Source: a virus (taxonomy: Duplodnaviria > Caudoviricetes). Taken from it: DNA of 46,323 nt. The notes below the pieces were generated by a model. It made no database searches. It had not been told where the DNA came from and saw only the letters and a program-made list of their open reading frames with translations. Position numbers and translations under genes: made by a program. The DNA lies in the IMG/VR virus record IMGVR_UViG_3300012352_000462, positions 1 through 46,323 of that record; one strand, given 5' to 3'. Below, one piece after another: positions 1-6,870 of this stretch. The number at the start of each line of letters is the position of its first letter. The first letter of the stretch is position 1.

Positions 1-378
1 TAGGTTCTGCTCTAGGACTTCCTTGCGGTTGATGTGCTTGTTGCCATACCACTCACTCTGGTTTGGCTTCTTTGGCTCAGTCGGCTTGACAGGGAAACCA
101 ACAATCTTGTCAGAGTCAAAGGTCAGTTCCAAACGCCCGTGATAGTTAGTTGTGATACGGATTAGGTCGCCAAACTCATAACCAATCTTGTCCACATTCT
201 TGCTAACAAAATCAGTAATAGCCTTGGCAACCTCAGTCTTGTAGATTGCTAGGTCTGCCTCATACTTCTCGTAGTCAGCAGGGTAAGACGCAACATCAGC
301 GTCAATCTTCTGAATCGCTTCCTCAATCTGAGCGATTACAGCAGCGGTTGGAACTTTTACGGATAGCGAACGAGCCAT
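1..378 (-). CDS. Hypothetical early protein, 3' end runs off the window (MARSLSVKVPTAAVIAQIEEAIQK...)
   Basis: Own translation: ATG at 378, open to position 1; AGAAAG SD and TGTCAG-N10-TATAAT promoter upstream; absent from the ORF track because there is no stop. Confidence 0.85.
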   Translation of the reverse strand, partial: MARSLSVKVPTAAVIAQIEEAIQKIDADVASYPADYEKYEADLAIYKTEVAKAITDFVSKNVDKIGYEFGDLIRITTNYHGRLELTFDSDKIVGFPVKPTEPKKPNQSEWYGNKHINRKEVLEQNL

Positions 379-409
379 TTTTATCTACTTTCTTTGGGGT
401 TGTGTATTT

Positions 410-431
410 ATTATAGGGGTAGGGTCTGACA
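410..431 (-). promoter_or_regulatory. PafBC/RecA-NDp-like promoter 1
   Basis: TGTCAG-ACCCTACCCC-TATAAT. Confidence 0.75.
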
Positions 432-440
432 TTTATTGTG

Positions 441-467
441 GGGTAGTTTATTGTGATACCCAGCACA
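441..467 (-). ncRNA. Compact H-type pseudoknot, copy 1, just after a stop codon
   Basis: UGUG-CU-GGGUA-U-CACA-AUAAAC-UACCC; covaries with the copy at 1178-1205. Confidence 0.6.
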
Positions 468-472
468 TTCCG

Positions 473-706
473 CTAAAAGATTCCTAGAATCTTCTTGCGT
501 GGAACAGTAACAGTCTTAGTAACAACCTTTTCGATTACCTTAGCCTGTGGCAGAGGAATGAAGCGAGTTTGGTTAGTAGAACCATCAAAAGTTCCATTAG
601 GATTACGGACAACTGCCTTGAATCCCTCACCAGACTTAGTTACCCAAATCTCGGTGCGAACATCTAAGCGTTGATTTTTTCTTTCAGCGATAATCTTTCC
701 AGACAT
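473..706 (-). CDS. Hypothetical early protein, 77 aa
   Basis: ORF track; purine-rich SD and own promoter at 737-758. Confidence 0.8.
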   Translation of the reverse strand: MSGKIIAERKNQRLDVRTEIWVTKSGEGFKAVVRNPNGTFDGSTNQTRFIPLPQAKVIEKVVTKTVTVPRKKILGIF

Positions 707-736
707 CTTTTCTCTTTTCTTCTTCAGGATACTTAT

Positions 737-758
737 AGTTTATCAGTAGGGTCTGACA
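737..758 (-). promoter_or_regulatory. PafBC/RecA-NDp-like promoter 2
   Basis: TGTCAG-ACCCTACTGA-TAAACT. Confidence 0.75.
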
Positions 759-768
759 TTATAGATAG

Positions 769-809
769 TTGGGGGGATAGAGAAAGGATAAGAAACGCTA
801 TCCCCCCAA
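769..809 (-). ncRNA. Stem-loop with 17-nt anti-SD-like loop
   Basis: 12-bp perfect inverted repeat TTGGGGGGATAG/CTATCCCCCCAA; minus-strand loop CGUUUCUUAUCCUUUCU. Confidence 0.55.
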
Positions 810-819
810 GTCTATTTAT

Positions 820-972
820 TTACTTGACAGTAGTCCAGCGTGGCTGACCATTCACATCTAGGCGAACACGGCTTGAGCCATTCTTGTTCAGGACTACTTC
901 CTGAATGATACCTGAAACACCACTCTTAGCGGTGGTGAACTGTGAGCCAACAGTTAGAGTTGCGTTTGACAT
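820..972 (-). CDS. Small beta-rich hypothetical protein, 50 aa (MSNATLTVGSQFTTAKSGVSG...RWTTVK)
   Basis: Own translation; GAAGGAAG SD; canonical promoter upstream. Confidence 0.8.
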   Translation of the reverse strand: MSNATLTVGSQFTTAKSGVSGIIQEVVLNKNGSSRVRLDVNGQPRWTTVK

Positions 973-1039
973 TTGCTTCCTTCACCTAATCAGCATTAGG
1001 ATTTTTCTCGATTTATTTATCAGAACTTCTGATGTATCT

Positions 1040-1068
1040 ATTATGGGGCATAAACGAACTAATGTCAA
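1040..1068 (-). promoter_or_regulatory. Housekeeping-sigma promoter
   Basis: TTGACA-N17-CATAAT. Confidence 0.7.
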
Positions 1069-1177
1069 GTCCAAATGCCACTTTTTAGATGTTTTTTTCT
1101 ACAAAGTTTTGGGGGATTTTTTGTAGCTTTCGTAACTTGACAAATGGGGAGGCTGGGGGATCGGTACCACAAAGTGG

Positions 1178-1205
1178 GGACAGTTTAACGTCGTGTCCAG
1201 GACGT
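1178..1205 (-). ncRNA. Compact H-type pseudoknot, copy 2
   Basis: (A)CGUC-CU-GGACA-C-GACG-UUAAAC-UGUCC; same loops as copy 1 with compensatory stems. Confidence 0.6.
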
Positions 1206-1236
1206 AGGTCCCCAGAAAGGATATAAGAGGGACCTA
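1205..1236 (-). ncRNA. Stem-loop with 16-nt anti-SD-like loop
   Basis: TAGGTCCC/GGGACCTA stem; minus-strand loop UCUUAUAUCCUUUCUG. Confidence 0.55.
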
Positions 1237-1258
1237 GTGCACGTACCCCTACGTACAG

Positions 1259-1978
1259 CTATTTTTTGCTTGCACTGAACAAAATATCATTGCGAGCAAA
1301 TACACATTGCGAACATGCAACACATGCAGAACCCTTTTCGCTAATCAGCTGCAACTTACGATTATTTTCAGGGCATGGAATGGCAGACTTGTCTTGAATA
1401 GTCTTGAAGTCCGCCTTACCTGTAGCAAAGTCTTTAGCAAGATAAGCAAGCTTTACATCATACTGTTGCTTTAGTTCGAATCCTAGGTCCTTGTTGGCCT
1501 CATCCGTAGAAAAGTATAGGCTAAGGTTGTCAATACCAATAAGCATTGGGATAGCAAAGTCTGAACGAGTATATGCCCAAAATTGAACGGTATTGTGCTT
1601 TAGGATTACATCCTTCCATGCATTAGTGTAATCAACATTGAAGAAGTCACCGTCCCAGTGAATGCGGAATAACTTTTCTGCATTACGCTTGTCACACTCT
1701 GCAACAAATTCGGTAATCATATCATCGATTAGGTTATACATGGTAAGGTAATCAGCGTCTTTTACCTGTTCCCAGTTCTTAGTCAATACCTCACGAACAC
1801 CCTTGAATACACGCTCTAGGTTACCTGCATAGCAAATCTTTTCACATACGGTAGTTGCTCCAGGGCATGAGTAAGCTTTTCCGCTAGGTAGGCCAAAGGT
1901 ATTGGCCATGGTTGGCTGCTTGCCTGCCTTGTTAACTTGGTTGGCAACTTTTCTATCTTTTGAACGAATTAGGGGCAT
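1259..1978 (-). CDS. GP88-family phage protein (Cys-rich, radical-SAM-like motif spacing)
   Basis: Motifs FGLPSG..SCPGA..VCEKICYA, FRIHWDGDFF, FWAYTR and C-terminal CPE...CVACSQC are typical of actinophage gp88-like proteins. Confidence 0.75.
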   Translation of the reverse strand: MPLIRSKDRKVANQVNKAGKQPTMANTFGLPSGKAYSCPGATTVCEKICYAGNLERVFKGVREVLTKNWEQVKDADYLTMYNLIDDMITEFVAECDKRNAEKLFRIHWDGDFFNVDYTNAWKDVILKHNTVQFWAYTRSDFAIPMLIGIDNLSLYFSTDEANKDLGFELKQQYDVKLAYLAKDFATGKADFKTIQDKSAIPCPENNRKLQLISEKGSACVACSQCVFARNDILFSASKK

Positions 1979-2002
1979 TGGGGTATCCTTTCAACTATTA
2001 AA

Positions 2003-2031
2003 AGTATACAGCTGGGGTAGGACATTGTCAA
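2003..2031 (-). promoter_or_regulatory. Composite promoter: -35 plus PafBC-like -26 element (promoter 3)
   Basis: TTGACA-A-TGTCCT-ACCCCAGCTG-TATACT (17-nt and 10-nt spacers). Confidence 0.7.
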
Positions 2032-2120
2032 GGATCCTGGGGGAGTTTCTTAAAGTTTCTTAATTTGACATTTAGATCAAGAAGTGATCGGCCCCCTTTC
2101 GGGGACTTTGTCAAGTCTAT

Positions 2121-2393
2121 TTAGTATTCCTCATCCAACTCAACCCAAGGCTGAAGGTGGTGCTGATAGATTATCTCATCGCTAGGGGCAAACTTGCTTC
2201 CTCGATAGGTAACGCCTTCTGGCATTTCAACCATTTTCATCCAGTCACCTGCGAGGGCATTGTCAATAGCCTCTAGGCAAGCGTCAATCATTGAAGACGG
2301 AACTGGTGGATAGTGATTAGACTGAAGGTGCCAGCCAATAGCGGTACGAGTGTCTAGCATTTCTGCCATCTCTTGTGCTTGTAGTGAACCCAT
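2121..2393 (-). CDS. Hypothetical early protein, 90 aa (WHLQSNHYPPVP motif)
   Basis: ORF track; AAAAGGATAA SD. Confidence 0.85.
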   Translation of the reverse strand: MGSLQAQEMAEMLDTRTAIGWHLQSNHYPPVPSSMIDACLEAIDNALAGDWMKMVEMPEGVTYRGSKFAPSDEIIYQHHLQPWVELDEEY

Positions 2394-2408
2394 TTTATTA
2401 TCCTTTTC

Positions 2409-2591
2409 TTATCTAACTAATCCGCTGTTGTAACGGTGTGTAAAACTAACAACTACCTCTTCATAGGTAAGGTCTTCATCAGTGCCTTCGTCATACCCAT
2501 ACTGAGCGATAAACTCTTCCAGCTCTTCCGTAGGGTTGTCGCTTTCTACTATGCGTAGCAACTCTTGTGTCTGGTCTAGTGATAGAAACAT
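2409..2591 (-). CDS. Small acidic hypothetical protein, 60 aa
   Basis: ORF track; AGAAAG SD; promoter at 2630-2651. Confidence 0.75.
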   Translation of the reverse strand: MFLSLDQTQELLRIVESDNPTEELEEFIAQYGYDEGTDEDLTYEEVVVSFTHRYNSGLVR

Positions 2592-2629
2592 CGTGTCTAC
2601 TTTCTTGCTGAGGGGTGTCCAACTCTAAT

Positions 2630-2651
2630 AGCATAGCAGTTGGCACAGACA
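2630..2651 (-). promoter_or_regulatory. PafBC/RecA-NDp-like promoter 4
   Basis: TGTCTG-TGCCAACTGC-TATGCT. Confidence 0.7.
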
Positions 2652-2711
2652 TTTATTGTTTTGATAGGGAATAGATTTTTAGTTAGTTTATTACAATCAA
2701 AGCAGTTGTAT

Positions 2712-2849
2712 TTACTCATACTTTACCAAGCCCAAGTGAACCTGAATGACAGCGAATTCCATTAGGGTTTTCTCTAGGTCAGTTAGTTCACGGCTAACAA
2801 CCTTTTGAGCCTTAGCGATTACCTTGTCTGCGATTTCCTGAGTGTCCAT
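2712..2849 (-). CDS. Microprotein, 45 aa (MDTQEIADKVIAKAQK...)
   Basis: Own translation; AGAAAGGATAA SD. Confidence 0.75.
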   Translation of the reverse strand: MDTQEIADKVIAKAQKVVSRELTDLEKTLMEFAVIQVHLGLVKYE

Positions 2850-2875
2850 TTAGTTATCCTTTCTTAGTTAGTTAT

Positions 2876-2897
2876 AGATTACCAGAGGGGTCAGACA
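2876..2897 (-). promoter_or_regulatory. PafBC/RecA-NDp-like promoter 5
   Basis: TGTCTG-ACCCCTCTGG-TAATCT. Confidence 0.75.
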
Positions 2898-3020
2898 TTA
2901 TAGGAATTCGAATGGGTCACGATCTTGAAAGATCTCTTCGAAGTCTGCGAGGGTATACTGTTCAGGGTTAGCTAAGTAGTCTGCTAATGCTTCCTGAATC
3001 TCTAGTGCTTGCTCATCCAT
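2898..3020 (-). CDS. Acidic microprotein, 40 aa (MDEQALEIQEALADYL...)
   Basis: Own translation; GAGAGGA SD; TAATG coupling to the upstream gene. Confidence 0.75.
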   Translation of the reverse strand: MDEQALEIQEALADYLANPEQYTLADFEEIFQDRDPFEFL

Positions 3021-3178
3021 TAGTTGATATCCTCTCTAATAGCCTTAGCTTTGTTGCTTTGGCGTGTGCCTTTGAACTTGTCTGGGGTAACAATCTGTTT
3101 CTTTCCTGCCTTTAGCATAGAGTGGAACAGAGCCTGTGATTCTGCTTTGCGTCTTGCTTCGTTTCTTTTACCTATCAT
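3020..3178 (-). CDS. Basic microprotein, 52 aa (MIGKRNEARRKAESQ...), probably leaderless
   Basis: Own translation; ATG lies 6 nt after the TAGAAT -10 box. Confidence 0.75.
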   Translation of the reverse strand: MIGKRNEARRKAESQALFHSMLKAGKKQIVTPDKFKGTRQSNKAKAIREDIN

Positions 3179-3513
3179 GCTGCTATTCTATCACTAGGGA
3201 CTGACATTTTACCAATGACTCTACCAATACGCCTAAACTCTTTGAACTGCTCAACTGTGTGAATGATGTGGCAGTTAGCACAGATAATACGGCACTTAGC
3301 AATCTCAGCCAAAATCATAGCCTGTGAGTAACTTGTCATAGAGCCTGGGTTTCTTCTCTTACCTGTGGCAGTAATGTGCTTAGTGTCAGGGTCAAGGTGG
3401 TCAAACTGTAAAGCGGCTGGGTTAGCGTTGTATCCACACTCACAGCAACCTTTGTCAGTCTTGATTTTGTCAAGCATCTTGCGGTTGTCAATCTGGCGTT
3501 GTGATAGAGGCAT
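3175..3513 (-). CDS. HNH endonuclease (Zn-binding)
   Basis: CCECG...LQFDH...EIAKCRIICANCH. Confidence 0.85.
   Translation of the reverse strand: MPLSQRQIDNRKMLDKIKTDKGCCECGYNANPAALQFDHLDPDTKHITATGKRRNPGSMTSYSQAMILAEIAKCRIICANCHIIHTVEQFKEFRRIGRVIGKMSVPSDRIAA
3185..3206 (-). promoter_or_regulatory. PafBC/RecA-NDp-like promoter 6, inside the 3' end of the HNH gene
   Basis: TGTCAG-TCCCTAGTGA-TAGAAT. Confidence 0.75.
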
Positions 3514-3540
3514 TTGGGGTAATCCTTTCTTCTAATAAAA

Positions 3541-3569
3541 AGTATACAGGATTGGGGACTTTTTAGCAA
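3541..3569 (-). promoter_or_regulatory. Housekeeping-sigma promoter
   Basis: TTGCTA-N17-TATACT. Confidence 0.55.
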
Positions 3570-3628
3570 GTTTCTTAAATCGTGTCGTAAATAAAATTCA
3601 AGGGCAGGGCCGATCACACATCTGACGT

Positions 3629-3823
3629 TTAGTCAAATGCATAGAGAGAAGCATACATCTCTCCGATAGCCTCCTCCTCACGGACACGTGCTTCCGCCTG
3701 GCGAAGGTATTCCTTCTGCTCAGGGGTACGAGCTGCCTCCTCAGCAGCAATCTCAGCCTGCCAAGCGAGGAACTCCTCAAACTCAGCCTGCAACTCTTCT
3801 TGGGTCATCTCTGAATCAAACAT
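3629..3823 (-). CDS. Acidic helical hypothetical protein, 64 aa
   Basis: ORF track; GAAAGGATAA SD. Confidence 0.8.
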   Translation of the reverse strand: MFDSEMTQEELQAEFEEFLAWQAEIAAEEAARTPEQKEYLRQAEARVREEEAIGEMYASLYAFD

Positions 3824-3846
3824 GCTTTATCCTTTCAACTAAGACA

Positions 3847-3875
3847 AACATATCACAAATCTGGGGAAAAGTCAA
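3847..3875 (-). promoter_or_regulatory. Housekeeping-sigma promoter
   Basis: TTGACT-N17-TATGTT. Confidence 0.6.
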
Positions 3876-3976
3876 GGGCTTTCTTAAAATCTTTCGTAAA
3901 TAAAAAGATCACGATCAGGGGCCGTTACGGTCCCACAAACCAGGAACCTTGTCAAGTCCCTGGCGTGGCGTGTCGT

Positions 3977-4096
3977 TTAGAACGGTGGCTTGAATAGTTC
4001 CTTAGCCTTGCGGTATCCAACACCGTGAGCCATTAGGTAAACTACGGTAGCAAGTAGAATGTCTACTAGAAGGTTGAAGCCGTTGTAAAAAATCAT
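3977..4096 (-). CDS. Single-TM membrane microprotein, 39 aa (MIFYNGFNLLVDILLATVVYLMAHGVGYRKAK...)
   Basis: Own translation; AGAAAGGA SD; TTGACA-N17-TAAAAT promoter at 4124-4152. Confidence 0.75.
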   Translation of the reverse strand: MIFYNGFNLLVDILLATVVYLMAHGVGYRKAKELFKPPF

Positions 4097-4131
4097 TTGA
4101 GTTTTTCCTTTCTTGTTAGTTTTATTTTAGA

Positions 4132-4293
4132 CTATGGCAGGTAGTCTGTCAAGTCTTGCTCTAGGTAAGCCTCGGCATCAGCGACAGGCATTAGACCCTT
4201 GTAGTCCCCACACTCTGGGCAGATGTAGGCGTGGGTAGTGGTGTAGCAGAAGACGCAGAATCGAAGGTCCTTGTCTGGTGTAGTGTAAGTCAT
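4132..4293 (-). CDS. Zn-ribbon microprotein, 53 aa (CVFC...CPECG)
   Basis: Own translation; AGAAAGGAAG SD. Confidence 0.75.
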   Translation of the reverse strand: MTYTTPDKDLRFCVFCYTTTHAYICPECGDYKGLMPVADAEAYLEQDLTDYLP

Positions 4294-4316
4294 TTTGACT
4301 TCCTTTCTTTTTTATT

Positions 4317-4338
4317 ACTCTAGCAGAGGGGTCTGACA
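4317..4338 (-). promoter_or_regulatory. PafBC/RecA-NDp-like promoter 7
   Basis: TGTCAG-ACCCCTCTGC-TAGAGT. Confidence 0.75.
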
Positions 4339-4339
4339 T

Positions 4340-4507
4340 TTATTTCATTACAGCGTCAATAAACCGCTGGTGGTCAAATCTTGGGTTGTCCTTTGAAAAC
4401 ATTTCTGAAAACTTTTCAGCAACATCAGACAAGATTAGAAAATCTACATCATCAGCCATTGAGTTTAGAATGTTTGCGGTTTCTACATAGTCCTTGCGAG
4501 TCATCAT
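4340..4507 (-). CDS. Phage microprotein, 55 aa (MMTRKDY...DNPRFDHQRF)
   Basis: Own translation; AAGGATAG SD; the motif pattern is recurrent in phage early regions. Confidence 0.8.
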   Translation of the reverse strand: MMTRKDYVETANILNSMADDVDFLILSDVAEKFSEMFSKDNPRFDHQRFIDAVMK

Positions 4508-4519
4508 TATTTTCTATCC

Positions 4520-4669
4520 TTAGTTTTGGTGGGTTAGGGTAAAGGTAAAGTAGCCATCACGCTTGCTTGCTACCTTATGGTGAAACATTGGGTTGCCGTA
4601 TAGGTCTGGGGCAAACAAGCCCAAGCCCTCGCAGGTTTCGCACTTTACTAGTTCTGAATCTTTATACAT
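4520..4669 (-). CDS. Microprotein, 49 aa (CETC motif)
   Basis: Own translation; AGAAAGGA SD. Confidence 0.7.
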   Translation of the reverse strand: MYKDSELVKCETCEGLGLFAPDLYGNPMFHHKVASKRDGYFTFTLTHQN

Positions 4670-4694
4670 TTAGTTTTCCTTTCTTAGTGGTTCT

Positions 4695-4716
4695 AATCTA
4701 ACACAGGGGTCAGACA
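4695..4716 (-). promoter_or_regulatory. PafBC/RecA-NDp-like promoter 8
   Basis: TGTCTG-ACCCCTGTGT-TAGATT. Confidence 0.75.
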
Positions 4717-4717
4717 T

Positions 4718-4897
4718 TTATCGTGTCTTGTTGAGCAACAAATCCATGTATCGCTCTTGAGCGTGTTCTGGCAGGGCATTGAAAGTGTTAGTGTTCATGT
4801 ATCGCTTGCCATCACGAATCATGGCAGGGTTGAAGACGATAGCGTTTACACGCTCCATGAAAGCCTTCTCGGTCTTGGTCATTCTTGGTTTTCTCAT
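4718..4897 (-). CDS. Basic microprotein, 59 aa (MRKPRMTKTEKAFMERV...)
   Basis: Own translation; AGAAAGGT SD. Confidence 0.75.
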   Translation of the reverse strand: MRKPRMTKTEKAFMERVNAIVFNPAMIRDGKRYMNTNTFNALPEHAQERYMDLLLNKTR

Positions 4898-4921
4898 TAG
4901 TTTACCTTTCTTATTACTACA

Positions 4922-4943
4922 AACTTAGCACAGGGGTCAGACA
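4922..4943 (-). promoter_or_regulatory. PafBC/RecA-NDp-like promoter 9
   Basis: TGTCTG-ACCCCTGTGC-TAAGTT. Confidence 0.75.
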
Positions 4944-4993
4944 TTTTAGCTACGACACGCCGTTACCGTTATAAATCCGTTACAAATCTGGGG

Positions 4994-5040
4994 ATCCAAG
5001 ATCTTGTGTCTTAAACCGTAAAAGCTACTATATGTGGGGG
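4994..5040. promoter_or_regulatory. Tandem NrdR-like boxes, pair 1
   Basis: Cores CAAGATCTTG (4997) and CTATATGTGG (5028), 31 bp apart. Confidence 0.55.
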
Positions 5041-5092
5041 CCGTATACGATCCCAGGCGTATCCACACTTGTCAAGTGCGACACGCCGTAGA

Positions 5093-5266
5093 TTACATAT
5101 TTCTTAGCATTTCGTTATAGTCTGCCAATGCCTTGGCATAAATCTCAGGGTATTGCTGAGCAAGTCCCTCTAAACGCTTATCGCTATCCTTCATCTCTTG
5201 GAAGGTTCCACCCCAGTGAGCAGAGTGGTTAGATGAAACTTCTTTTAGCATTTCGTCATAAGTCAT
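5093..5266 (-). CDS. Microprotein, 57 aa (MTYDEMLKEVSSNHSAHWGG...)
   Basis: Own translation; AGAAAGGATAA SD. Confidence 0.75.
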   Translation of the reverse strand: MTYDEMLKEVSSNHSAHWGGTFQEMKDSDKRLEGLAQQYPEIYAKALADYNEMLRNM

Positions 5267-5279
5267 TAGTTATCCTTTC

Positions 5280-5423
5280 TTAGCAGTGAATCTCTAGAAT
5301 CTCTGCGATTTCTGATGAAGTCCTAGCGTAGACTTCTTCGTTACATTCAGGGCAGTTGCCTGAGTAGAAACGGTCATCCCAGTGTAGTGGAACAACCTTA
5401 CCAGTAGTTAGTGAAACAATCAT
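5280..5423 (-). CDS. Metal-binding microprotein, 47 aa (CPEC...HC)
   Basis: Own translation; AGAAAGGATAA SD. Confidence 0.75.
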   Translation of the reverse strand: MIVSLTTGKVVPLHWDDRFYSGNCPECNEEVYARTSSEIAEILEIHC

Positions 5424-5446
5424 TTGTTATCCTTTCTTATAAGTTT

Positions 5447-5468
5447 AGATTAGCAGTAGGGACTGACA
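5447..5468 (-). promoter_or_regulatory. PafBC/RecA-NDp-like promoter 10
   Basis: TGTCAG-TCCCTACTGC-TAATCT. Confidence 0.75.
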
Positions 5469-5469
5469 T

Positions 5470-5604
5470 TTAGTTACAGTCGCCGTATGCTTCGTAGCAT
5501 AGTTCGCAACATTCTTGTCCGAACTCTTCGACATACACTCTTGGAGTGTGGTTGTCGCAAATCTCGCAGAAACCTAGGTCTAGAACATTCTTTAGTGAAA
5601 ACAT
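5470..5604 (-). CDS. Zn-ribbon microprotein, 44 aa (CEICD...CCELCY); paralogue of 6455-6565
   Basis: Own translation; AGAAAGGA SD. Confidence 0.75.
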   Translation of the reverse strand: MFSLKNVLDLGFCEICDNHTPRVYVEEFGQECCELCYEAYGDCN

Positions 5605-5723
5605 CTTGTTTTCCTTTCTTTTATCTTTTTCTTTATCTATATATATTCAATCAGATAAATAGTCATTTGTCAAGCACATTTGGTAACAAATTTATAACGG
5701 ATTTTTTGTAGGGATTCTACAGG

Positions 5724-5771
5724 GGACTATATATAGTGGTCTTAAGGGGCTTTAGCTACTACATCTGGGCC
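5724..5771. promoter_or_regulatory. Tandem NrdR-like boxes, pair 2
   Basis: Cores CTATATATAG (5727) and CTACATCTGG (5759), 32 bp apart. Confidence 0.6.
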
Positions 5772-5833
5772 GTGTAACGGTCCCACATGGGGAGCACTTT
5801 GTCAAGTACATTTTGGTAACATTTTGATAACGG

Positions 5834-5896
5834 TTAGTTGGTTAGCCATGTGAACAGGACGGCCAGGGCAACGAGTACATAGATTACTTCAGTCAC
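5834..5896 (-). CDS. Hydrophobic 20-aa micropeptide (MTEVIYVLVALAVLFTWLTN)
   Basis: Own translation; GTG start overlaps the end of the upstream ORF; AAGGGA SD. Confidence 0.5.
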   Translation of the reverse strand: MTEVIYVLVALAVLFTWLTN

Positions 5897-5969
5897 AATC
5901 TATTCCCTTGTCATCAATAAGCATGATATCAATCAGTCCAATTAGGTATTCTAGTTCTTGCTTATCCAT
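5889..5969 (-). CDS. Acidic 26-aa micropeptide (MDKQELEYLIGLIDIMLIDDKGIDCD)
   Basis: Own translation; TAATG coupling with the upstream ORF. Confidence 0.55.
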   Translation of the reverse strand: MDKQELEYLIGLIDIMLIDDKGIDCD

Positions 5970-6142
5970 TATAGAACCTTGCCTTCTGCTACTACTGAAC
6001 CATTGTCAAAGCGGATGACATAGCCAGAGATGCTACCCTTTGCTACTAGGTCAGAGTAGAAAGACTTTACTGCTTCCTTGTGCTCTGGTGCGTATGATGG
6101 GAAAATCTGTGAGTTGTCTAGGTTCTGTACTACTACGTTCAT
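5969..6142 (-). CDS. Microprotein, 57 aa (MNVVVQNLDNSQIFPSY...)
   Basis: Own translation; AAAAGGATAA SD. Confidence 0.75.
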   Translation of the reverse strand: MNVVVQNLDNSQIFPSYAPEHKEAVKSFYSDLVAKGSISGYVIRFDNGSVVAEGKVL

Positions 6143-6176
6143 TTGTTTTATCCTTTTCTTCTTTGTTTGTACTATT

Positions 6177-6205
6177 AGTTTATGTTATAGGTCAGACATT
6201 GTCAA
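6177..6205 (-). promoter_or_regulatory. Composite promoter: -35 plus PafBC-like element (promoter 11)
   Basis: TTGACA-A-TGTCTG-ACCTATAACA-TAAACT. Confidence 0.75.
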
Positions 6206-6240
6206 ATCTATTTGATAACGTTTCTGTAACGTATATGTCG

Positions 6241-6399
6241 TTAGCACTTGCACCTAACGATCTCAATGTGATCCTTATACACCTTGATAGCACCGAGGGT
6301 ATTACAAGACTGGCAAGCCAATACGCTTATCTTTGGCAACTTACCCAATGCCTTCTTTGCCATTACTGCTTTAGTGATTAGTGCTAGACCTACACCCAT
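6241..6399 (-). CDS. Basic Cys-containing microprotein, 52 aa (MGVGLALITK...CQSC...CKC)
   Basis: Start moved from 6504 to 6399 because an AAAAGGATAA SD and a promoter lie directly upstream of 6399. Confidence 0.75.
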   Translation of the reverse strand: MGVGLALITKAVMAKKALGKLPKISVLACQSCNTLGAIKVYKDHIEIVRCKC

Positions 6400-6426
6400 T
6401 AGATTATCCTTTTCCTTAGTAGTCTT

Positions 6427-6448
6427 ATTATAGTCTATGGCTAGGACA
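6427..6448 (-). promoter_or_regulatory. PafBC/RecA-NDp-like promoter 12
   Basis: TGTCCT-AGCCATAGAC-TATAAT. Confidence 0.65.
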
Positions 6449-6454
6449 TTTATC

Positions 6455-6565
6455 CTAGTGGATTTCTCCATACTCTGACCAGCAGATTTCGCAACCATAC
6501 TCATCAGCCTCCTTGATGAAAACCTTCTCTACTACTACATCGCATAGTTCGCAAACTGAAAACAT
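6455..6565 (-). CDS. Zn-ribbon microprotein, 36 aa (CELCD...CEICW)
   Basis: Own translation; AGAAAGGAAG SD. Confidence 0.75.
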   Translation of the reverse strand: MFSVCELCDVVVEKVFIKEADEYGCEICWSEYGEIH

Positions 6566-6610
6566 CTGTTTACTTCCTTTCTTTTTATTTCTATTTCTTT
6601 ATCTACTTAT

Positions 6611-6650
6611 ACATTAGTCGAAGGGTCAGACAAAGTCAAGACGACACGCC
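6611..6650 (-). promoter_or_regulatory. First promoter of the array: GACAC box plus -35 plus PafBC-like element (promoter 13)
   Basis: GGCGTGTCG-TC-TTGACT-T-TGTCTG-ACCCTTCGAC-TAATGT. Confidence 0.75.
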
Positions 6651-6870
6651 GATGAATCTAAAATATTTTTTGATGGCCACCCAGTGTGTGCGGACTATAA
6701 ATTTGACTTTTATTCTCCAGATCGTGTATCGTACATCTTTGCAAAATATTCAGATTTTCACAAATCTCATTTTTAAAATTTTTTTCAGATTTGCCATATA
6801 ATAGATATAGAAAGCGGAAGACCCAAAGCTGTGGGGGCACCAATTAATTAGCTGCAGCAGGTGATATTTA

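Follow-up and report, generated by a model that had tools for sequence, protein, structure and literature searches.

A conserved phage RNA element whose loops are complementary to the phage's own early ribosome-binding sites

Two hairpins in a block of small phage genes display the same loop sequence on unrelated stems, and this sequence is complementary to Shine-Dalgarno (SD) sequences of the same genome. Is this an RNA element that acts on translation, and if so, which ribosome-binding sites (RBSs) would it address? The stretch of DNA analysed (the window) is a 46,323-bp viral record with 41% GC. Its portal, prohead protease and capsid genes lie on the plus strand; from 1 to 6600, small genes form a block on the minus strand. 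Judging from gene size, promoter density and position, this block is probably early. Its predicted promoters are several of the TTGACA type and 13 TGTC-type motifs; the latter, promoter-like copies of TGTC-N12-TANNNT, stand before early genes between window positions 431 and 6632 (minus strand). A PafBC reading of the early promoters was not confirmed: the strict TGTC-type pattern gave four uninformative matches in the stand-in hosts described below, and no PafBC consensus was found in the portions of PMC6789036 and PMC8223512 available to us. Intergenic elements at window 1135-1170, 2085-2120, 3915-3960, 5035-5080 and 5765-5810 carry GC-rich inverted pieces with GATC/GGTCC and the near-palindromic TTGTCAAGT, and three of them have TTGACA followed after 17 nt by GAYCGT in place of the -10 box. 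Elsewhere in the window lie a GlcNAc glycosyltransferase gene (PF11397; 6930-7895, plus strand) and an NlpC/P60 gene (16611-17234) with its own AGGAGG RBS, which is on the minus strand among late genes.

The host is probably an actinobacterium, because the GP88 family gene of the window is shared with mycobacteriophages and the RBSs fit the CCUUUCU rDNA tail. Assignment of the host via capsid homologues in genome bins was abandoned, as 8 loci led to 8 differently named and mostly implausible bins. We refer to two stand-in host genomes (G033 and G069), which were reached through two actinobacterial bins and from which the real host may differ. As relatives we used uncultured contigs from IMG/VR, the longest of about 107-125 kb; among isolated phages only short GP88 matches were found, to 8 mycobacteriophage records.

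The first-pass annotation had described the two hairpins, both with UAUCCUUUCU in the loop on the transcribed strand, and our analysis bore this out, with the hairpins at the given positions on the minus (early-gene) strand (Table 1). It had also called the loops exact complements of early SD sequences. Indeed, AGAAAGGATA occurs exactly five times in the window, namely in the two loops and at 2855-2864, 5271-5280 and 5428-5437; hairpin 1 pairs over 11 nt with the three RBSs and hairpin 2 over 10 nt. When one mismatch was allowed, 19 matches were found in the window against 4.6 expected. The heptamer UCCUUUC (TCCTTTC in the DNA) is present twice on the whole minus strand of the 46 kb, both times in these loops, and GAAAGGA is present 12 times on this strand, 11 of them as RBSs at early starts. 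No such hairpin arose in 1000 dinucleotide shuffles of positions 1-6700, and the predicted unpaired probability of the loop is mostly above 0.9. At the level of the rDNA, as distinct from the mature rRNA end, the 16S tail reads ...ATCACCTCCTTTCT in 10/10 actinobacterial loci.

Table 1. Features of the window that bear on the anti-RBS hairpins
Feature	Position	Strand	Remarks
Hairpin 1	769..809	-	12-bp stem, 17-nt anti-RBS loop 781-797
50-aa gene	820..972	-	conserved, function unassigned; transcript would carry hairpin 1
Predicted sigma-A promoter of the 50-aa gene	1040..1068	-	TTGACA-17-CATAAT
H-type pseudoknot	1178..1204	-	stem 1 1204-1201/1192-1189; stem 2 1198-1194/1182-1178
Hairpin 2 (B)	1205..1236	-	8-9-bp stem, anti-RBS loop 1214-1227
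Hairpin A	1238..1257	-	short stem, G-run loop, directly after the GP88 stop
GP88-family gene (PF17338)	1259..1978	-	hairpin A, hairpin 2 and the pseudoknot expected on its transcript
Predicted sigma-A promoter of the GP88 unit	2003..2031	-	TTGACA-17-TATACT; overlaps a TGTC-type motif
Proximal early block of small genes	1978..6600	-	
Predicted target RBS	2854..2864	-	11-nt match to hairpin 1; 45-aa gene starting 2849
Predicted target RBS	5270..5280	-	11-nt match to hairpin 1; 57-aa gene starting 5266
Predicted target RBS	5427..5437	-	11-nt match to hairpin 1; 47-aa gene starting 5423

Hairpin 1 (folding energy -20.8 kcal/mol, z -5.0) begins 10 nt past the stop codon of the 50-aa gene, is followed by no U-tract and adjoins the next TGTC-type promoter motif. 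Hairpin 2 (-12.6 kcal/mol, z -2.3) has 9 bp including a closing U-G and a 14-nt loop, or a 16-nt loop if the U-G is not counted; in the pseudoknot-free minimum-energy fold of the window sequence an alternative structure opens it. Neither hairpin was called as a canonical intrinsic terminator, the loops being 14-17 nt long and the stems lacking a subsequent U-run.

Hairpin 2 is the middle module of a larger 3' element of about 80 nt (1178-1257), composed of hairpin A, the anti-RBS hairpin and a pseudoknot. Hairpin A is retained in 13 distinct elements, and its G-run may conceivably pair with a C-run between the SD and the AUG of GP88; the C-run is present in 6/7 clusters with hairpin A versus 25/67 without, a count that ignores phylogeny. 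A C-run at the same place is also seen in an HNH endonuclease-like early gene (3175-3513, minus strand). In an alignment of 30 pseudoknot sequences, whose rows were picked by a motif that leans toward the structure, 98% of the cells are paired and 6/9 pairs show two-sided change. Across 117 representative loci the pseudoknot was found 256 times in sense versus 2 times in antisense orientation, and 13 copies lie behind an anti-SD loop. It is an independent 3'-end module that is very common in the phage family, has no Rfam match and likely acts as a 3'-end protector.

The 50-aa gene was found in 88 relatives. Among 14 distinct hairpin 1 sequences, two-sided change was observed at 6/11 pairs, and AUCCUUUC is invariant in the loop. 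Downstream of this gene the relatives carry hairpin 1, the pseudoknot alone, a multiloop RNA or a short-loop hairpin, and the position is therefore a 3'-end slot. The multiloop RNA (L084:3150-3245, also in L085, L088, L091, L094 and L146) is conserved, probably pseudoknotted and without an Rfam match. In L142, L147, L148, L159 and L160 the same type of stem bears other pyrimidine loops lacking CCUUUC, and in L130 the stem is retained and the loop lost. A covariance model of hairpin 1, run with E values up to 1, gave no match in 920 kb of stand-in host sequence (46 loci); it also misses hairpin 2 of the window, so the two hairpins are not one structural family by alignment.

In the comparison of loop and stem conservation, a check proposed by the first-pass annotation, what the relatives share is the loop, which is kept on stems that are unrelated and compensating. 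Under strict criteria, 57 unique hairpins were found on the gene strand versus 1 on the opposite strand (160 loci plus the window, 1.38 Mb); with looser criteria the contrast drops to 124 versus 32. The internal non-Watson-Crick pairs in 48 stems comprise 38 G-U versus 3 A-C, which identifies the gene strand as the folding strand. Hairpins were called in 45/162 GP88-bearing groups, and 69/70 of them are downstream of the GP88 start, hence beyond the gene block to which they are complementary. The remaining 117/162 groups have no such hairpin in the fetched range, yet they use GAAAGG RBSs, and some hairpin-bearing genomes (L497) keep GAAAGG downstream of the hairpin. Tandem anti-RBS loops were met only in a few relatives (L454, L532). 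A third class, with long stems and 10-nt CCUUUCU loops, marks the distal limit of the early region, immediately ahead of AGGAG-led genes; examples (L555:17860-17925, L581:16475-16535 and L497:11480-11525) directly precede a TGATACAAT-type promoter. In the distal early region of L399, L411 and L414 there are 25-nt loops with two anti-leader pieces, CCUUUCCUU and AGUUAGU. We concluded from these sequence comparisons that the element is a real, conserved and previously undescribed phage RNA element; no published description was found in the literature, including passages of PMC10690425 and PMC5737381, motif supplements aside.

As to the RBSs addressed, loop 1 pairs over 8-11 nt with 15/18 listed proximal starts (6565 to 1978; start 3174 is mis-set) and over 5-6 nt with three distal starts (972, 706 and 378). 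By our own start calls, 0/37 late starts reach 8 nt, all of them pairing over 7 nt or less. The loops thus set proximal apart from distal genes inside the early region, as well as early from late genes. That late genes are spared mainly as leaderless was not supported: only 9/37 late starts look leaderless by the TANNNT rule, and the others have AGGAG/GGAGG or weak signals, so that AGGAG-type RBSs would be the usual way of escape. For 76 hairpins, pairing of at least 8 nt was found at 280/999 proximal starts (28%) versus 59/686 distal ones. Before loop constraints are taken into account, loop 1 is predicted to form duplexes of -13.7 to -15.0 kcal/mol with its three best sites, compared with -10.1 kcal/mol for the 16S tail; at weaker sites the predicted advantage of the loop is 0-2 kcal/mol.

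In the stand-in hosts, 0/647 and 7/661 starts reach 8 nt with loop 1 and GAAAGG is present at 16/647 and 11/661 starts (800 kb of about 1.39 Mb each, 58% of the genome; ORFs of at least 130 aa). The proximal bias of the pairing and its near absence from the stand-in starts indicate that the loop mirrors a phage-specific RBS class, and AGAAAGGA, the class used by its proximal early genes, is the probable target. Of the suggested silencing of SD-led early or host mRNAs, comparative evidence supports the complementarity to the early RBSs of the phage, and silencing of host mRNAs is not supported, the tag being nearly absent from stand-in starts.

The complementarity to the RBSs reaches beyond the rRNA-like core, as judged by swap and flank-shuffle tests. 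From 212 groups, the 188 with at least 10 proximal starts gave 117 clusters, 30 of them with loops of at least 12 nt; one spurious loop and all shorter loops were left out of the swap test. Among the 30 dereplicated loop-bearing genomes the top-3 match to the own early starts was 10.3 nt versus 9.43 +/- 0.16 nt in swaps, a value that 0/10,000 permutations reached (p about 1e-4; not phylogeny-proof), and when the flanks were shuffled around the fixed core (60 shuffles) the match fell to 8.36 +/- 0.20 nt. The loop flanks thus appear to carry target information. Lineage-specific matches of 13-16 nt that extend past the core are seen in L224, L405, L137, L427 and L554. The share of GAAAGGAT among GAAAGG sites is 40% in 31 genomes with AUCCUUUC loops, 12% in 9 genomes with UUCCUUUC loops and 8% in 159 genomes with none called, a class that includes some true 7-bp-stem loops lost by the filter. 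In the 61/117 clusters with enough flank, GAAAGGA was counted at 75/171 proximal (44%) versus 22/106 distal sites (21%) in 15 loop-bearing clusters (p 9e-5) and at 111/499 (22%) versus 64/298 (21%) in 46 loop-less clusters (p 0.86). Strict kinship-controlled covariation between loop and RBS was not significant (6 independent pairs, p 0.125 or more; 5 pairs in a second test), and in 15 nearest-neighbour pairs the own match exceeded the cross match in 8, was lower in 5 and tied in 2 (Wilcoxon p 0.08). The most frequent loop variant, CUUACUUCCUUUCU (14 groups), fits other genomes as well as its own, over 8-9 nt, and equals the 16S tail at 11/14 positions.

This last variant, without a genome-specific match, is what would be expected if the loop mimicked the 3' tail of 16S rRNA and bound or decoyed a protein, such as a ribosomal protein, a maturation factor or a nuclease cutting the anti-SD; the match to the early RBSs would then arise because loop and RBSs are both tied to the same rRNA sequence. 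The invariant core of the loop and the final 8 nt of the rDNA tail are the same, and the class with 10-nt loops carries little beyond the core. We nevertheless consider such mimicry rather unlikely, since the flanks diverge from the rRNA toward leaders of the same phage, over up to 16 nt and including the side beyond the rRNA 3' end, the RBS composition varies with the loop type, and the proximal enrichment of the tag is found only with loops. A role confined to the 3' end, which the hairpins would either form as terminators or stabilise, with a loop that signals processing or is left over from an inverted RBS copy, accords with the alternative structures behind the 50-aa gene, which make 3'-end formation the shared role of that slot, and with the loss of the loop from the L130 stem. 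RNase E cuts at RN/CNU according to the part of PMC10641625 consulted, and AU/CCU in both window loops fits this site. The UUCCUUUC variants do not fit it at that position, however, and a cleavage site does not account for genome-specific complementarity of 13-16 nt or for the same loop on dozens of unrelated stems, so that this explanation is quite doubtful.

Fold-back inhibition from the 3' end occurs in type I toxin mRNAs, and the loop could similarly fold onto the RBS of the mRNA that carries it when synthesis of this mRNA has ended, allowing one burst of protein per mRNA. The GP88 RBS (1984-1992) pairs over 9 nt with both loops, hence with hairpin 2 of its own transcript, and the G-run of hairpin A and the GP88 C-run are in the correct antiparallel order. 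However, the RBS of the 50-aa gene pairs only over 5 nt with hairpin 1, and pairing of at least 8 nt was found for the own upstream gene in 12/69 cases and for the next gene in 12/63, below the proximal proportion. Action in cis on the own or next gene was therefore ruled out as a general rule, and as the main function it is unlikely; it may be an added role of the GP88 element. That the RNA shuts off SD-led mRNAs of the host is very unlikely. The core is an anti-SD, and weak binding of U-rich variants to AGGAGG-type sites is conceivable through G-U pairs, but in the two stand-ins (800 kb each, 1.6 Mb in total, without an ORF length limit) plausible starts preceded by AGAAAGGA number 0 and 1 and those preceded by AAGGAG 32 and 34, and GAAAGG is as scarce there as given above. 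It is most improbable of all that the functional strand is the opposite one, with an SD or GGA motif in the loop, or that DNA is the active form. In the window itself, the stems are nearly as stable on one strand as on the other, but the excess of G-U over A-C pairs is on the gene strand, the pseudoknot also contains G-U pairs there, and the plus strand has no start codon at SD distance, by which an antisense ORF led by a plus-strand SD was ruled out as well; single-stranded DNA of the gene strand is less strictly disfavoured.

The reading we prefer, with a probability of about 0.6, is that the loops pair in trans with the AGAAAGGA-type RBSs of the proximal early block and block ribosome loading once the RNA builds up. 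The established part comprises the structures, with their strand and conservation, and a complementarity limited to one class of RBS; since the loops mirror the tag of the first early block, which is rare on later and stand-in host genes, this block is likely turned down by base-pairing. Both hairpin units would be transcribed early from sigma-A-like promoters. The stems, together with hairpin A and the pseudoknot in the case of hairpin 2, would resist exonucleases, so that the loop-bearing RNA, which may be the entire mRNA or a decay product of some 40-80 nt from its 3' end, might outlast the early mRNAs and serve as a delayed timer, its loop competing with the 16S tail for the RBS. Repression of AGAAAGGAUAA-led translation would dampen the initial wave of small early genes. 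Their use of a different anti-SD register would spare the host genes, the middle and late genes, which have AGGAG or are leaderless, and the distal early genes, in which AGAAAG lacks a following GA. Since an early promoter is predicted for either unit, the device would work by negative feedback with a delay and not through a repressor made late; the early RBS would be the address label and the loop its reader.

By structure the element would belong to the functional class of anti-SD loop sRNAs that occlude RBSs, as a conserved unpaired anti-SD loop is displayed on covarying stems. RNAIII of S. aureus has UCCC loops and the cuckoo RNAs of Alphaproteobacteria have C-rich anti-SD loops (PMC4615179, as far as its text was available). 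Common to all three are variable, compensating stems, a conserved anti-SD loop and a modular build, and for the known RNAs occlusion of the RBS is shown or proposed in that text. The loop of the phage element is CCUUUCU, the 3'-most register of the actinobacterial tail, in contrast to CCUCCUCCC in cuckoo RNAs and UCCC in RNAIII (same text). The cuckoo motif CCUCCUCCC of CcsR/alpha-r14 is absent from the phage loops, which carry UAUCCUUUCU, and the window shows no set of 2-4 adjacent hairpins with the same loop, its two loops being 400 nt apart in separate units. Unlike RNAIII and the cuckoo RNAs, the element is phage-encoded, lies at the 3' ends of early genes, matches its own genome and not host genes, and is often capped by a pseudoknot. 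A search with Rfam 15 (c4, cuckoo, 6C, RNAIII and RsaE) at gathering threshold gave 0 matches in the window; window 600-1400 had only sub-threshold miRNA/snoRNA matches, and 11 related loci only tRNAs.

Two phage systems are also comparable. The T4 endoribonuclease RegB recognises the SD (GGAG) of early transcripts and shuts these down, sparing middle and late mRNAs (PMC3014915, in the part consulted). RegB is a protein nuclease that needs S1 and has been demonstrated experimentally, whereas here the reader would be an RNA loop and the selectivity would come from the SD register. The c4 antisense RNA, also encoded by phages, uses its loops to pair in trans at a phage RBS; it serves temperate immunity and has one target operon. 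The present element differs in that it would address a whole class of starts via the SD itself, and in having no Rfam match; c4 of phages P1 and P7 is Rfam family RF01695 (PMC2864571, in the part available).

The closest parallel in pattern is the start-associated sequence (SAS) known from cluster K mycobacteriophages and from Microbacterium phages of cluster EF. It is described in the text consulted (PMC3203893, PMC7302621) as a phage-specific, over-conserved RBS on one gene class that is rare in the host and would, as proposed there, be bound by some RNA or protein yet to be named. In four phages of cluster K1 a single reversed SAS copy lies away from any start (PMC3203893, text as available). 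Apart from figures and supplements, the text seen of PMC3203893 and PMC7302621 does not describe this copy as an RNA loop. Anaya and Angelica have 16-17 copies in forward orientation and one in reverse, and the reversed copy is predicted to be the 10-nt loop of a long stem (-42 and -47 kcal/mol in two close relatives, with no shuffle control). These stem-loops are at L593:2345-2400 (Anaya) and L594:2110-2165 (Angelica), and the Angelica copy overlaps the annotated gp92. The pattern of the window is similar, with 11 RBS copies, two reversed ones and rarity in the stand-in hosts. SAS differs in being a 13-nt motif with an AGGAG core, to which the shorter and more variable tag found here has no sequence relation.

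Early-gene shut-off in lytic phages is understood in few cases, and RegB and RegA of T4 are proteins; the hosts in question are not known to have Hfq. It is a tentative generalization, with the odds somewhat against it, that actinobacterial phages run an address-label system in which a private SD variant marks one gene class and exonuclease-proof 3' RNA modules display its mirror image, switching the class off at a set time without a protein regulator; the SAS of cluster K and its reversed copy might then be the same device, evolved independently. If so, class-wide shut-off by RNA alone, through reading of the SD register, would add a new means of timing the phage programme. It would also give a testable answer to the question, dating from 2011, of what binds SAS, in phages grown on M. 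smegmatis, and the reversed SAS hairpin of the cluster K mycobacteriophages offers a culturable test. Pairs of this kind could supply orthogonal RBSs and repressors for actinobacterial engineering. The loop element itself is common in an abundant phage family, which the titles of the genome bins place in freshwater.
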